A DNA stretch of 64,000 nt. It comes from a virus (lineage: Duplodnaviria > Caudoviricetes). Numbering within the stretch: position 1 is the stretch's first letter; each line of letters starts with the position of its first letter. The position numbers and the translations under genes are program-made. Positions 31,777 through 48,124 of this stretch are shown here, in pieces. The stretch lies in IMG/VR virus record IMGVR_UViG_3300021426_000001, one strand, 5' to 3'. The notes under the pieces were generated by a model. It did not search any database. It saw only the letters and a list, made by a program, of their open reading frames with translations, and was not told the DNA's origin.

Positions 31777-32439
31777 TTAGTTCCTCTCTTTTCTCGGTTT
31801 CCACATGACCGAGCGTGTTCTGTTCTTCCAAAACTCCTGAATGTGCTTCGGGAACGGGCTCGGATCAGAGTCATTTTGCTCTATCAAGAGCTCCGTTCTT
31901 AGTGACTCGGCAGCGCCGTACGCGTCTACCACGTCTGAGAGTCCCGGCGTTCCCTTCTTTCCGTTAGTCACTGGCGGGAAAATGCTCAGGTCTGGCTTCA
32001 TCAGTGTGAGTGACTTGTACGTGTTCCACATAGAGAGCTTGTCTGAGTCTCCGTGACCCGTGAAGATCTTCTTTATCGTCATCGGTGAGTAGAGATAGAG
32101 CGGCTTCTCCATGCGCCAGAGGCTCTGACGGATCCAGCCCTCGAACTCAGCAAGGTCGAATACTAGGCCTACAGCGCCGGTCTTGCCGTATGCGTAGTCT
32201 TCTGCCGCTACCATGTCAGCGTTTCTCGCGAAGGCGAGAATTCTCTCCTGCATGAACTCGTACTTGTCATATTTATCCAAAAAGCCGTCCTTGTTGTACC
32301 AGATCGAGTGCTCGGACGCATACTTCTTAGTGGTGGTGAAAGTGAGCCAGTCAGTGTCGATGATGTTCAGCCTATCATCTAGTGTCATCATCACGCAGCC
32401 CGTGTGGGTCACTGACATGTCCAGTCCAACTATCTTCAT
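31777..32439 (-). CDS. RuvC-like Holliday junction resolvase
   Basis: IVGLDMS.THTG, AEDYAYG, P.TIKK..TG.G.SDK, D.VDA. Confidence 0.85.
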   Translation of the reverse strand: MKIVGLDMSVTHTGCVMMTLDDRLNIIDTDWLTFTTTKKYASEHSIWYNKDGFLDKYDKYEFMQERILAFARNADMVAAEDYAYGKTGAVGLVFDLAEFEGWIRQSLWRMEKPLYLYSPMTIKKIFTGHGDSDKLSMWNTYKSLTLMKPDLSIFPPVTNGKKGTPGLSDVVDAYGAAESLRTELLIEQNDSDPSPFPKHIQEFWKNRTRSVMWKPRKERN

Positions 32440-32794
32440 CAGTTAGTTCCTTCATTCTTTCGAGCGTTGCTCTTAGTCTGTCTAAAATAGAAAAATCTTC
32501 GCCGTTGGTGATTTGCCACAGCCAGTGAACGACCTTGTGGCTCATCTCCGTCAGCAGCATGAAGTCGTCATCCTTGGAGAATGCTCCATACTGCTCGGCT
32601 CTGAGATTCATGTGATGGCAGGTTAGTCTGTCGTCGTGTGTGAGCTCCCTGCAAGTTAGCTCATCTATCAGTCCCCTCGCCTTGATCAGTCTCTGCTTCA
32701 GATCTTGCCACTCACGCGTGTGACGCAGCTTGAACTTTCGCTTCTGATCGATCTTCTTGTGGGACGGACGGTCATCAGAACGTCCAGACTCCAT
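32375..32794 (-). CDS. HNH endonuclease
   Basis: EW..LK, LTCHH, F.LL...SHKVVH; start ATG 32794 after GAGGA. Confidence 0.7.
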   Translation of the reverse strand: MESGRSDDRPSHKKIDQKRKFKLRHTREWQDLKQRLIKARGLIDELTCRELTHDDRLTCHHMNLRAEQYGAFSKDDDFMLLTEMSHKVVHWLWQITNGEDFSILDRLRATLERMKELTDEDSWTGHVSDPHGLRDDDTR

Positions 32795-33857
32795 CGTCCT
32801 CTTCTGGAAATATTGTCTGCGGGACTTCAACGAGTTCCTCCCTTTTGTTCATGTCTACCTTGAGATTGTCTAGGTCAATCTCTGGCTGGATAGTCGCGTA
32901 GACGGCCCAGTAGAGAGCCGATACGAGGTCATCGTGCGAGTTAGAGGACGCCTTGAACACGTTCGGGCTCACTTCGATGAAGGTAGTGAGCTCCTTCAGT
33001 GTAGCCGAGTCGTGCAGAATGAGAGCGTCTCTGTTGACTTCACGCTGGAGAAGAAGACAAGCTTCGAGCTTGTTCGACTTGTTAGCGTTGGTGCCAATTC
33101 CGTGAGGATCGGTGTTGATTATGTTCTGGCAGTCCATCGTGTACCAGAGTTCTTCTGCTACCTTTCCGCCAGGACCGTTGTTTTCGATGATTATGAGTGC
33201 GTTGTTGTACCACTCGGACAGATCCTTGATTATCTGGCTGAACTTGCCGTAGGTCGTTCTGTCGTCGTGGAACGTGCAGACTTGTTCGAACTTGTCCTTT
33301 GATACTACCTTCAGGATCTGAATGGCCGAGAAGTCGAGACCAGAGCCGGTAGCCGTGTCGACTCCCATCACGTAGACGGCGCCAGGGATAGGCTCTTCCC
33401 AGATCGAGACCATGTACCCGTACTTGAATGACTTTGGCTCAGACGGGAACAGCTTGCCCAGCTTATCGAGTTCGATGAGGGTCGTTGAAGATCCCATGAA
33501 TTCGCAGTTGTGGTGGATCTGGTCACTTTCGCCGTTCTCGTCCACTGTGCTGTAGAGATGGCCTCTCACAGAGTATGGACCGTAGAAGTCACCCTCGGTC
33601 TCCTTTATCTCGATTATCTCGCTGCCGCATATCTCGTCGCCGACCTGAAGTGACTCGACAGCGACCTGCCAGTTGTCCCTCATGAAGATGTGGCCCTCGG
33701 AGTAAGAGACTTCGCGGCCGTCTTTTAGCTTAATCTTGTAACCCTTTGACTTCTTGTGGATGAGGCCCCAGAACGGCTCATATCTGCCGTCTGGACCCAT
33801 TATCTCGAAGCCTGAGTTGTTCTTTTCGATGCTTATTGCTGCTTTTGAGTCTGCCAT
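32775..33857 (-). CDS. gp17: split-intein C-fragment fused to terminase large subunit C-terminal (nuclease) half
   Basis: 117-aa Hint fragment ending HHN, then CEFMGSSTTLI; GVDTATG.G.DFS, IIENNG.G, HDDLV.AL. Confidence 0.9.
   Translation of the reverse strand: MADSKAAISIEKNNSGFEIMGPDGRYEPFWGLIHKKSKGYKIKLKDGREVSYSEGHIFMRDNWQVAVESLQVGDEICGSEIIEIKETEGDFYGPYSVRGHLYSTVDENGESDQIHHNCEFMGSSTTLIELDKLGKLFPSEPKSFKYGYMVSIWEEPIPGAVYVMGVDTATGSGLDFSAIQILKVVSKDKFEQVCTFHDDRTTYGKFSQIIKDLSEWYNNALIIIENNGPGGKVAEELWYTMDCQNIINTDPHGIGTNANKSNKLEACLLLQREVNRDALILHDSATLKELTTFIEVSPNVFKASSNSHDDLVSALYWAVYATIQPEIDLDNLKVDMNKREELVEVPQTIFPEEDDGVWTF
33507..33857 (-). other. atypically split intein, IntC (117 aa)
   Basis: GPDG..F.G, SEGH (block B), L.VGD, HN|C junction; no Cys1/block A; resembles AceL/GOS-TerL IntC. 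Confidence 0.85.
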
Positions 33858-33893
33858 ATCGTCTTTTTTGCTCGTTTTGAGCAGTTTATGAAG

Positions 33894-33901
33894 TATTTAT
33901 G
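33894..33901 (-). promoter_or_regulatory. late promoter variant for TerL C-half
   Basis: CATAAATA. Confidence 0.55.
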
Positions 33902-33983
33902 CTGCAAAATTCAAAAAGGGACACGCGCATCTGTGCATGGTACCCCCTATTTTTGCTGTTTTTTGGAAAGGTGTATAAATAGA

Positions 33984-35393
33984 CTATTTGGCCTCGTTGA
34001 CGGCCTTCGACATCTTAGTCTCGTCTGCTGGATGCGCTGCGTCAGTAGCGACCCTGAGCTTTATCTCCAAGTCACTGCCCTTTCTGAACATCCACTCTAT
34101 CGTGTGAATGACGCACTTTCCGCTGTCTACCATAGATTCACGGCTCATAGAGCTGTAGTCGACGTCCAGAACGTCTCCTATGCGCAAATCTTGGTCTCCA
34201 AAGCATGGCAGCTGCTTGCCAGCGTTCAGTTTTATCGTGTGTCGGTTGGCGAAGAACTCGGATCTGAGTATGCTGTTGATGGTCGGACAGAGCTCCCAGC
34301 CCGGGTGAAGATTCATGTTCGTGTAGCCGTTGAAGTGTCGATAGCGAGTGACTTCCGAGTCACGTCCGTCTGCCGCTAGCTCACCGCTACAGAACTGCTT
34401 GTAAGCGAGCGTGTGAGTCAGATGATAGAAGCCATCGAACTCCAAGTCGTCTGAGTCATATAGTATGGACTCCAGCATCGGGTCAAATACCTCTACCTTC
34501 GCAGTGTTTCCAGCGACATCGGCAGTCCAGCCGCTGTTGTTCTTCTGCATCTCCTCGATGAGAATGTAGCAGTTGTTCGAGTACTTGTCCTTCAGCTCGT
34601 CCACAGTCATCTTCTGTACATCACGCTGGAAGAGGTCGTTGAAGATCACGTGCTTGACCTTCTCTTTGAGCTTCCTATTCACGTCTGTCTCGAAGAAGTA
34701 AGGTACGCCGTTCTCAAGGTTTTGACGCATTCCGTAGAAGCGGGCCTCACAGTTCTTGTTGATCCAGAACATACCGAAGTCGTTCTCGCTAACGTAGCTG
34801 TGATTGACCACGAAAGTGATGAAGTCGTCGGCGTTCATGTTGGGGTTGAACCAGAGCTGGTCATCAGACGGCTCCACGTTCGTAGACAGCTTACCCAAGC
34901 CTATCTGTCCAGCGACTGATCCGAGCACATCAGTTGACTTAGAAGATGAGCCAGGCGATGTCTCTGGGTACTTCGGAATGCAGTTGAACATGCCGAGCGC
35001 ATCGCTCACGAAAGTGACTACGTACTCAGTTCTGCCGTCACCAGCCTTCTTGGTCTTGGATCCGACTATTCTGAAGCGTCCCTTGCTCACATTGTTCTTG
35101 GTGGACTCGTCGCTCTGAGTGTATTCGAAGCCGATCCACAGCGTTCTGCCCGAGTAGAAGCGGTTTATCTCGCGTGAGGATCCGTAGTCGTAGAAAGTGA
35201 ACTCGCCGACTGGCAGCTTGAGAAACATTGACTCTATGAGCTTGAAAGATCCGATGTTGGGCAGCTCTACCTGAAACGCCCTCTCAGTTCCATACTCGTC
35301 TAGCCAGATGCGCATATTCATTCTCGCATTCTGGCTCAGATTTGCTTCTTTCGCTCTTGAGAGTATCTGTGCAGTTGAAAGCTGGTCAGACAT
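33984..35393 (-). CDS. baseplate hub protein (gp27-like) candidate
   Basis: FNPNM....I.F....SY...DF.MFWIN....F; C-terminal L.IGD.....DSGK.VI..I. Confidence 0.55.
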   Translation of the reverse strand: MSDQLSTAQILSRAKEANLSQNARMNMRIWLDEYGTERAFQVELPNIGSFKLIESMFLKLPVGEFTFYDYGSSREINRFYSGRTLWIGFEYTQSDESTKNNVSKGRFRIVGSKTKKAGDGRTEYVVTFVSDALGMFNCIPKYPETSPGSSSKSTDVLGSVAGQIGLGKLSTNVEPSDDQLWFNPNMNADDFITFVVNHSYVSENDFGMFWINKNCEARFYGMRQNLENGVPYFFETDVNRKLKEKVKHVIFNDLFQRDVQKMTVDELKDKYSNNCYILIEEMQKNNSGWTADVAGNTAKVEVFDPMLESILYDSDDLEFDGFYHLTHTLAYKQFCSGELAADGRDSEVTRYRHFNGYTNMNLHPGWELCPTINSILRSEFFANRHTIKLNAGKQLPCFGDQDLRIGDVLDVDYSSMSRESMVDSGKCVIHTIEWMFRKGSDLEIKLRVATDAAHPADETKMSKAVNEAK

Positions 35394-35395
35394 CG

Positions 35396-36316
35396 CTACC
35401 TCAGTGTCACTTTGATGCCATGCTCTCCCTCGCGCCATGCGTTGATGGACATCTTGGAGATTATGTCGTATGCCTCGTATAGGTCTTGCGGGGCGTTGAA
35501 CATTCTGAACTCGTCGTCGTTCACTATCAGGAGATAGTCATTCTTCTCTACCTTCATGTAGCAGTAGAGGTGCATGGCTGCGACCGTCCTTATGAGCTGG
35601 CCCTTGTCGAAATAGAGCTTAGTAGCCGCTCTGCTGACGCCGTTGTCCTCCTTCCATAGATTCTGGAGGTACGTGAAGATCTTCATCGCCTTCTTCTCGT
35701 CCAGTCCTAGCGCCTTCTTGATCTTGTACGCGTTGTCCTGATTGAGCGCCCAGTCTTTCATGTCGTTGATCTGCAGCTCACGGCAGATGTCCCTCATTAG
35801 TCTCGCAGTCATCGGCTTGAAGGCCTTGTTCTGACCGTTTCCGAGCGGAGCGCCGACTCCCTTGACCTCTATCTTGCTGCCAGTGTCTAGATCCACCAAG
35901 TCGCCAACGCTGCTAGAGAATCCGATGTTCTTGAATGTAGCCGCGAACAAGAACTCGCCCTTTCCGATAGCTGGACGTGTCGTGGTGACTCCTAGGCACA
36001 TGGATATGTACTCCTTCTTCAGATCGTCTCTGAGCGGAGTCTTAGCTAGCAGAGCAGTTAGCTTATCTGCCATCTTTCCGGGCTTCATAGTAGACTTGAA
36101 GAGATCGGCCCTGAACTCGTCTGGATCGATCAATAGCGTCTTCTCTATAATGCTCACGTAGTCGCTGACAAGCTCGTTGTGCTTGCCGAGCTTTCTGTCT
36201 GTCCAGAACTCCCTCGCGATAGCCTTGATCTTCGGCTCCTTCGCTAGGTTCGTGATCTTCTGGGCTGTGCCGTTGTCGACTTTAACTGTCTGTCCGTTTA
36301 GATTTATGTTTGGCAT
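35396..36316 (-). CDS. late protein with PD-(D/E)xK-like motif
   Basis: IGKGEF...GDLVD...IEVKG; late promoter 36337-36344; start ATG 36316. Confidence 0.55.
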   Translation of the reverse strand: MPNINLNGQTVKVDNGTAQKITNLAKEPKIKAIAREFWTDRKLGKHNELVSDYVSIIEKTLLIDPDEFRADLFKSTMKPGKMADKLTALLAKTPLRDDLKKEYISMCLGVTTTRPAIGKGEFLFAATFKNIGFSSSVGDLVDLDTGSKIEVKGVGAPLGNGQNKAFKPMTARLMRDICRELQINDMKDWALNQDNAYKIKKALGLDEKKAMKIFTYLQNLWKEDNGVSRAATKLYFDKGQLIRTVAAMHLYCYMKVEKNDYLLIVNDDEFRMFNAPQDLYEAYDIISKMSINAWREGEHGIKVTLR

Positions 36317-47149: not shown

Positions 47150-48124
47150 TTAACATTCATTCATGCCGTCGATGTAGAGCGAGCAGTCTGGCTGATAGTA
47201 GAAGATCTCGCTTCCCTCAGCTGCTACGTGAGCCTGGTTGCCGAGACAGCAGACCCAAGCCTTCTGTGGAAGATAGATCTCGTGCCACTTCCCGTCTTCT
47301 GTCAGCATGTGTCCGACCTCTCTTCCAGCGTCGAACATCTCGTGGTCTGGGTTTGTCACTTCGCAGATGTACTCGATGAATCCGTAAGGTCCGTGCCATG
47401 TGAACGCCTGCATCTTTGCTATTGGCGGGAACATCTGATCTACCTGTTTGAAGATGCTTAGATCCTCTACCTTAGATAGCGATACGATTAGCTTGACGAG
47501 GAAGTCTACCTGTGAGCCCTGAATGTCGCCCTCCAACATGCAGTCTCCCATGCCTCCGAGCTCGACCGTGAATCCGACATTACCCTGCTTGATAGTTCTC
47601 GACTTTAGAGTTCCCTGAGGACCGTCGCGAAGAATGTATGCGATCCTGTTCTCGATACACCACTTCACGTAAGCCTTCGCGTACGGACCGTTGTCGATCA
47701 GGACGCAGTTGTGGATAGATGGAGAATTATGGACATCAAGGACGATGTCCATTTCGTTCGCAAGGCACATCACCTTGCTTCTAGCGAGATCCATGTCGTC
47801 GACTTTTTCCTCAGTAGGGAATGCGCGATTGAGATTTCTGTCTTCTGGGAGAGCTGAAGGATCCTTGAAGTCTGTATATTCTCTCGTGCCAGCAACGAGT
47901 CCAGGAGCGTTTGCGCCCATGTATAGATCAAGTGAACCGTTGATTAGATTCTCGTTCTTGATGCGAGAGTACGCTTCGTAAGATGCGAGAACTGCTAGCT
48001 GCTCGTCTCCGTGAACACCAGAAACCATGAGGATGTTGTAGCCCTCATAGTTCTTGTAATTGAACGAAAACGGTCTCGGAGTCTTTGACTCCAGCAAGTA
48101 GTCATAAGTTGTTGGGATTGCCAT
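47150..48124 (-). CDS. M14 metallopeptidase, succinylglutamate desuccinylase/aspartoacylase family
   Basis: GVHGDE, NLNRAFP, LDVH, TVELGG. Confidence 0.88.
   Translation of the reverse strand: MAIPTTYDYLLESKTPRPFSFNYKNYEGYNILMVSGVHGDEQLAVLASYEAYSRIKNENLINGSLDLYMGANAPGLVAGTREYTDFKDPSALPEDRNLNRAFPTEEKVDDMDLARSKVMCLANEMDIVLDVHNSPSIHNCVLIDNGPYAKAYVKWCIENRIAYILRDGPQGTLKSRTIKQGNVGFTVELGGMGDCMLEGDIQGSQVDFLVKLIVSLSKVEDLSIFKQVDQMFPPIAKMQAFTWHGPYGFIEYICEVTNPDHEMFDAGREVGHMLTEDGKWHEIYLPQKAWVCCLGNQAHVAAEGSEIFYYQPDCSLYIDGMNEC

Follow-up and report, generated by a model that had tools for sequence, protein, structure and literature searches.

How does a phage come by a complete large terminase when the one clear terminase gene in the 64,000-nucleotide stretch of its genome analyzed here (hereafter, the window) opens inside an intein and carries the nuclease half of the protein? 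The preliminary description of this locus had read the open reading frame (ORF) as one that starts without Cys1 or block A, runs for 117 residues to HHN, and then continues with a Cys into the nuclease domain of a gp17-type terminase, and our translation and domain searches agreed with that reading (Table 1). Cys1 and block A were absent at the ORF start, where the open frame extends just about 14 codons farther upstream, and HHN (residues 115 to 117) was followed by Cys118 and then by EFMGSSTTLI. The downstream part matched Terminase_6C of Pfam (E 5.6e-11; 43.1 bits against a curated cut-off of 22.6), and PHROG large-terminase families also matched the ORF. In a tblastn search of 50,697 phage records, 2,233 records were matched, with most alignments beginning at approximately residue 116, the position of the ATPase-nuclease linker of gp17; a megablast search of 8 kb against phage records returned no match. 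From the linker onward, the C-half shared 32% identity with the intact large terminase (TerL) of Aeromonas phage Aswh_1, and the alignment placed nuclease residues D166, E224, and D309/D310 on the same residues of that protein. The 3′ end of the C-half gene is overlapped by about 20 to 56 nt by another ORF (32375-32830, minus strand; 139 to 151 aa), which was also called in ENA and Logan records and had no family match.

Table 1. Positions of the C-half gene, its parts, and the putative signals upstream of it in the window
Feature	Position	Strand	Extent or basis
Whole ORF: IntC plus C-terminal (nuclease) half of a T4-type large terminase	32775..33857	minus	360 aa + stop
IntC, residues 1-117: block B S53-x-x-H56, block F F-Y-G93-P94, block G to H116-N117	33507..33857	minus	Alignment A1, profile against PDB, AF2 model
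C-extein, residues 118-360 + stop; Cys118 as +1 nucleophile (C-E-F-M-G-S-S)	32775..33506	minus	Collinear with intact Aswh_1 TerL
RNase H-like terminase nuclease domain, residues 164-319	32901..33368	minus	Pfam Terminase_6C; acidic residues aligned to Aswh_1 TerL
Late-promoter-like motif CATAAATA, 36 nt upstream of ATG	33894..33901	minus	Motif match; NATAAATA in relatives
Terminator-like hairpin + T-run, between upstream gene and promoter-like motif	33922..33939	minus	Conserved in relatives

Our sequence and profile comparisons placed IntC within the AceL-TerL/GOS-TerL/Cat group of atypically split inteins. A single-sequence search of the PDB (phmmer) with IntC weakly placed the gp41-1 intein and CatC on top. 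A profile built from 31 homologous N-terminal regions of C-halves, ranging in identity from 96% to 26% (alignment A1), matched CatC (6dsl_B, "Consensus engineered intein CatC") with an E of 1.3e-21 over residues 12-114 of 118, and after this chain it matched inteins only (gp41-1, VidaL, and others). The same chain was the best Foldseek match (TM 0.72 normalised by target; E 7e-6) of the AlphaFold2 model of IntC (mean pLDDT, 82.9), and the top 50 matches of this model were all inteins or intein-like Hint (BIL) domains. When residues 1-130 were searched exhaustively against 1.8 billion representatives, further orphan C-halves emerged, alongside full-length TerL proteins that carry a contiguous intein between Terminase_6N and Terminase_6C (P0240, 724 aa; P0223, 1021 aa). 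Both the insertion site and the split site of IntC were identical to those of the known atypically split TerL inteins. The kinship with AceL and GOS-TerL that had been proposed from the CEF site, with a short IntN and a long IntC, is supported by the matches of both fragments to both Cat chains.

The gene for the ATPase half had been described as missing from about 30 kb on either side, and it was missing from the whole window: a tblastn search of all 64 kb with an intact gp17-type TerL and two split N-halves returned the C-half and one weak hit besides (47150-48124, minus strand; E 0.14). The weak hit was rejected as the ATPase half, being an AstE/AspA-family protein. This 324-aa protein is a succinylglutamate desuccinylase/aspartoacylase (AstE_AspA; Pfam E 2.6e-14), an enzyme that is unusual within the structural region of a phage. 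The partner gene lay far away in close relatives, as had been suggested. IMG/VR relatives at 75-82% identity included G001 (243,336 bp with terminal repeats, 100% complete) and G002 (247,923 bp, 98% complete), both of which have exactly one Terminase_6C domain, located on the IntC-fused gene, and a Terminase_6N ORF 127-129 kb from the C-half. The latter ORF encodes 298 aa with intact Walker motifs, in which FAQEYA is followed by C-C-D... and a stop after a 32-aa IntN. As the partner, the preliminary description had envisaged an ATPase ORF with a tail of Cys plus about 25-35 aa, and such a tail, 32 aa long, was found both in the relatives and on a contig of run X1 (below). A database search with the N-half yielded 273 proteins at E ≤ 1e-20, nearly all of about 298-306 aa. 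Among the matches listed, every full-length N-half closed with the linker motif, a Cys, and 30-39 residues, and the profile of these N-tails had CatN (6dsl_A) as its best PDB match (E 1.3e-3).

The window protein is also encoded on a 262,403-bp ENA contig and on a Logan contig from one 2013 run. In the window's own genome, a sequence-index look-up identified an 897-nt stretch, 81,609 nt past the window end and about 112 kb from the C-half, that shares 52 of 77 words with the N-half P0128. In run X1, where every sampled word of the window was present (100%) and which is probably its source sample, the N-half gene is covered through ...Y-S-M-L-E-H-Q-I-stop by a contig of 60,686 bp (depth, 109), and the encoded tail is that of P0016, P0135, and P0174; in runs X2-X4, the N-half was covered just by short, divergent pieces. 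The window's contig was not among the 3 listed of the 12 contigs carrying P0128, and the exact own-genome N-half was not in the cluster listing of N-half candidates. The index look-up and the contig from the probable source run indicate that the own-genome N-half is probably present. When the two exteins (266 + 243 aa) were spliced in silico, the product was collinear with residues 113-607 of Aswh_1 TerL, and the junction fell within an ungapped block.

Several other genes were observed among these relatives. A second terminase paralogue (L016 1501-2277 in G004; L035 in G002) consists of an ATPase alone, 258 aa long and intact in its Walker A and B motifs; it ends with F-R-C-E-I-L-G-E-F-I-stop, exactly at the linker position at which the split TerL is cut, and has neither intein nor nuclease. 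As it is missing from the complete genome G001, it is regarded as accessory. In G001, a 469-aa ORF immediately following the N-half (L033 5788-7197) has weak matches to Vsr, DUF559, and MTES_1575 endonucleases and a Mom-like C-terminal part, and it is missing at that place in the P0128 contigs L021 and L022. Perhaps this ORF encodes a Vsr-like, free-standing homing endonuclease such as those known from fractured genes, and it may be a trace of a fractured-gene past. Upstream of the N-half, a GyrB-like topoisomerase subunit contains an intein with an HNH domain in L021 and L022 (1050-4263; 1070 aa), whereas its counterpart in G001 (L033 2509-4395; 628 aa) is without the intein, which is a presence/absence polymorphism of inteins in this phage group.

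A gene that lacks a partner within the window, in a group where some relatives carry second Terminase_6N-like genes, might be the decaying remnant of a fractured terminase gene, with a working intact terminase encoded elsewhere in the genome. We consider this very improbable, as no intact terL was found in the near-complete relatives G001 and G002, where the only nuclease domain is the one on the IntC-fused gene. Moreover, the ORF is intact, its homologues occur at 74-97% identity in many samples, the catalytic residues of both intein and nuclease are kept, and G001, a complete genome, does not have the second ATPase paralogue. An assembly mis-join near 33860-33980, a risk raised in the preliminary description, would have produced a chimeric contig in which the gene is cut from its 5′ half. 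This is barely credible, and we exclude it because the locus recurs, with the same gene start, upstream intergenic region (hairpin and NATAAATA), and neighbors, in at least 10 independent contigs of different samples (IMG/VR, ENA, and Logan). Orphan C-halves also occur in more distant clades (40-45% identity), where, as far as the contigs reach, no Terminase_6N was found within 10 kb of the C-half, suggesting that the separation of the two genes is old and widespread.

Whether the two fragments could still splice is best judged from the residues that would perform the reaction. Cys1 was invariant in the aligned N-tails (35/35) and was present in every full-length tail listed. Across the 31 C-halves, spanning 96% to 26% identity, H56 of block B, N117, and C118 were invariant, with S/T53 and H116 nearly so; of 80 representatives scanned, 71 had HN followed by C, and the remaining ones were mostly truncated or unaligned. 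Of the Class 1 set, the window protein itself has S53, H56, H116, N117, and C118. The retention of Cys1, the block B S/T-x-x-H, the terminal Asn, and Cys+1 down to about 26% identity argues for real trans-splicing, since invariant nucleophiles would be expected for ligation rather than for docking or C-terminal cleavage alone. In a model of the complex between IntC and an N-tail, the interface took in block B, block F, and the terminal HHN, with an ipSAE of 0.79 compared with 0.00 for the best of three controls; the runs had at least 68% contact agreement and a partner pLDDT of at least 63. Of the solved complexes, 58 of 80 attained that mark, compared with 2 of 110 mismatched pairs. The IntN in this model was that of a close relative (P0135), from which the cognate IntN may differ, and, with the Cat complex (6DSL) already solved, the pass may reflect likeness to Cat only.

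One departure from the known family is in block F, where the preliminary description had seen the catalytic Asp apparently replaced by Gly. Block F reads F-Y-G-P, and alignment placed G93 on the Asp of CatC and gp41-1, so that the substitution itself stands; it is not private to this gene, as block F position 4 (F:4) was D in 25, G in 21, T in 15, E in 4, and S in 3 of the 74 representatives whose N-C junction was aligned. The Pro after this position was nearly invariant in the gut clades. The D422G substitution in the Mtu RecA mini-intein favors C-terminal cleavage without ligation (PMC9033041), and the Gly found here might therefore mark an intein that no longer ligates, whose fragments would act as a non-covalent docking module, or whose IntN would trigger C-cleavage to free the nuclease, leaving ATPase and nuclease as separate chains. 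That domain-only forms exist is illustrated by G002 and G004, which also have the ATPase-only paralogue ending at the same linker. We nevertheless judge a non-ligating intein to be improbable, given that nucleophiles are dispensable for docking, as are Cys1 and Cys+1 for C-cleavage alone, whereas none of Cys1, Cys+1, the terminal Asn, and the block B His varies between clades, down to about 26-40% identity. F:4 has been described as a "less conserved" assisting position in active inteins, most often Asp (Mills et al., PMC4031507), and within this family D, G, T, and S alternate there while all else is kept. Because the Gly belongs to a clade-wide polymorphism at such a position, it is no evidence of a new mechanism; splicing efficiency or side reactions could differ here. 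The acidic insertion before HN noted earlier was confirmed in alignment A1 as five mostly acidic residues within D-E-N-G-E-S-D-Q, and it was confined to the clade P0001-P0184. IntN position 2 is Cys in the window's clade.

The context of the C-half gene provided information on its probable expression. A late-type promoter had been assigned to this gene, and the motif CATAAATA upstream of the start codon, conserved as NATAAATA in relatives, upholds part of that assignment, although the motif is not a perfect TATAAATA and the promoter is assigned by motif only. In the window, TATAAATA was found 14 times (0.4 expected) and ATAAATA 21 times (2.5 expected), with nearly all copies on the minus (coding) strand and upstream of ORFs, a distribution that would fit late promoters of the T4 type in this phage. 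In relatives, GATAAATA or a close variant of it (GTAAATA in G001) lies about 50 nt ahead of the N-half gene. From the hairpin and the promoter-like motif, we infer that the C-half would form its own transcription unit. The upstream neighbor (33984-35438) had been called a baseplate gene, an identification that we could not confirm, as the ORF had no PHROG or Pfam match. When six neighboring ORFs were searched against PHROG and Pfam, nothing was matched save a RuvC-like Holliday junction resolvase (31777-32439, minus strand; PHROG 159; E 5e-24), which lies two genes downstream of the C-half. In distant relatives, the C-half was found amid genes with T4_baseplate hits and RegA-like genes.

Taken together, the terminase of this phage is probably rebuilt by protein trans-splicing of the AceL/GOS-TerL kind from the products of unlinked genes. 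This reading, by which the preliminary description had an essential motor assembled from unlinked genes through an atypically split intein, is supported because both fragments match the Cat chains, the near-complete relatives have a single nuclease domain, the N-half is found in the window's probable source sample and through the index of its genome, the splicing nucleophiles are kept, and the spliced product is collinear with an intact TerL. As a whole, we hold it highly probable that an IntC-nuclease protein and a distantly encoded ATPase-IntN protein yield a trans-spliced terminase in a jumbo phage of about 262 kb from the ruminant gut, a habitat taken from the sequencing runs that match the window or the N-half. 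In the mechanism that we propose, the 117-aa IntC and the T4-type nuclease half would be made as one protein, while the ATPase half would be a separate 298-aa protein, in which FAQEYA is followed by a 32-aa IntN starting with Cys, from a gene about 112 kb away in the same genome. Judging from the late-type NATAAATA motifs at both genes, both proteins would probably be produced late in infection. The short IntN would then dock into the nearly complete Hint fold of IntC, and Class 1 trans-splicing (through Cys1, the block B Ser/His, the terminal Asn, and Cys+1), as predicted from conservation and homology, would join the exteins and free the intein pieces. The product would be a 509-aa terminase collinear with gp17.

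The intein family itself was already known; what is new here is that the halves lie in unlinked genes, that block F lacks the Asp, and that an insertion precedes HHN. In the literature searched, no paper on an unlinked split TerL intein or on one from a jumbo phage was found, and within that literature the large reservoir of atypically split inteins in ruminant-gut jumbo phages is previously undescribed. To our knowledge, cold or marine metagenomes are the source of the natural atypically split inteins that have been characterized. Natural inteins of this type, whose IntN is very short, are valued for protein labeling and have been described as rare (PMC11766414). In a large clade of ruminant-gut jumbo phages, an atypically split intein appears to be the normal state of the terminase, providing a phage case of an essential motor dependent on predicted trans-splicing of unlinked gene products. 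The clade also offers a panel of warm-adapted natural variants (D, G, T, or S at F:4) for engineering and for study of the role of F:4. For annotation pipelines, it carries a warning, as such genomes are currently called "terminase N-terminal only" or have their C-half missed. A more speculative idea, with the odds against it, is that the loss of the block F Asp (to Gly, Thr, or Ser) and the gain of the insertion in the gut clade cause Asn cyclisation and branch formation to be coordinated unlike in AceL and Cat, making these inteins orthogonal to both, and that unlinked, separately promoted halves serve to time or titrate terminase assembly.

Among known systems, the closest are AceL, GOS-TerL, and Cat, which, like the window gene, have a gp17-type TerL host and the same linker site (...QE-x-A followed by C-E/S-F-x-G-S). 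They are also split after block A as the window intein is, with an IntN of 25-37 aa compared with 32 aa here and an IntC of 104-122 aa compared with 117 aa here; the reported IntN and IntC lengths are 25 + 104 aa in AceL-TerL, 37 + 115 aa in GOS-TerL, and 30 + 104 aa in Cat (PMC11766414). The Cys1/Cys+1 chemistry of AceL and Cat is shared with the window intein, and the CatC chain aligns with the window IntC through its C-E. The differences lie in block F, where the AceL-like members and Cat have Asp, an assisting residue that does not strictly define the family (PMC4031507), and the window intein has Gly, and in the five-residue insertion before HHN and the Cys at IntN position 2, which AceL, GOS, and Cat are without. 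Their origins differ as well, as AceL and GOS come from an Antarctic lake or the ocean, whereas the window clade comes from the warm ruminant gut.

The split of the GOS terminase locus was described as "unusual," its 122-residue C-part lacking N1 alone among the motifs, and the locus as a "fractured gene" (PMC2677866). As a fractured gene, it occupies a single locus (PMC2677866), whereas the halves of the window clade lie more than 100 kb apart. The window gene likewise departs from the "fractured gene" layout (Dassa et al. 2009), in which a free-standing homing endonuclease gene separates the two halves at one locus; the Vsr/DUF559-like ORF adjacent to the N-half, which recalls the endonuclease of fractured genes, was seen in G001 only. 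In the location of its halves, the window clade resembles the cyanobacterial DnaE split intein, likewise an essential enzyme encoded by unlinked genes and joined by trans-splicing (cited in PMC2677866), but DnaE differs in its canonical split (long IntN and short IntC), its host protein, and its cellular genome.

The cultured Vibrio phage EniLVp02 (Straboviridae, PP209424.1) has the same intein site and split type as the window gene. In this phage (L001 4809-7095), the N-half ends with ...EHN followed by C-L-A-G-H and a short IntN, and the next ORF carries an IntC of about 110 aa to THN followed by C-S-F-N-G-S; the half genes overlap and the block F Asp is kept. The C-half of EniLVp02 is annotated merely as "hypothetical protein." In both EniLVp02 and the likewise cultured Vibrio phage VP-1, the halves are adjacent, unlike those of the window clade, and the N-half of VP-1 has a much longer extension after Cys1 as well as a separate contiguous intein near Walker A. 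Finally, the metagenomic P0240 (724 aa) contains a homologous Hint domain at the same TerL site, but in a single unsplit polypeptide (cis-splicing).
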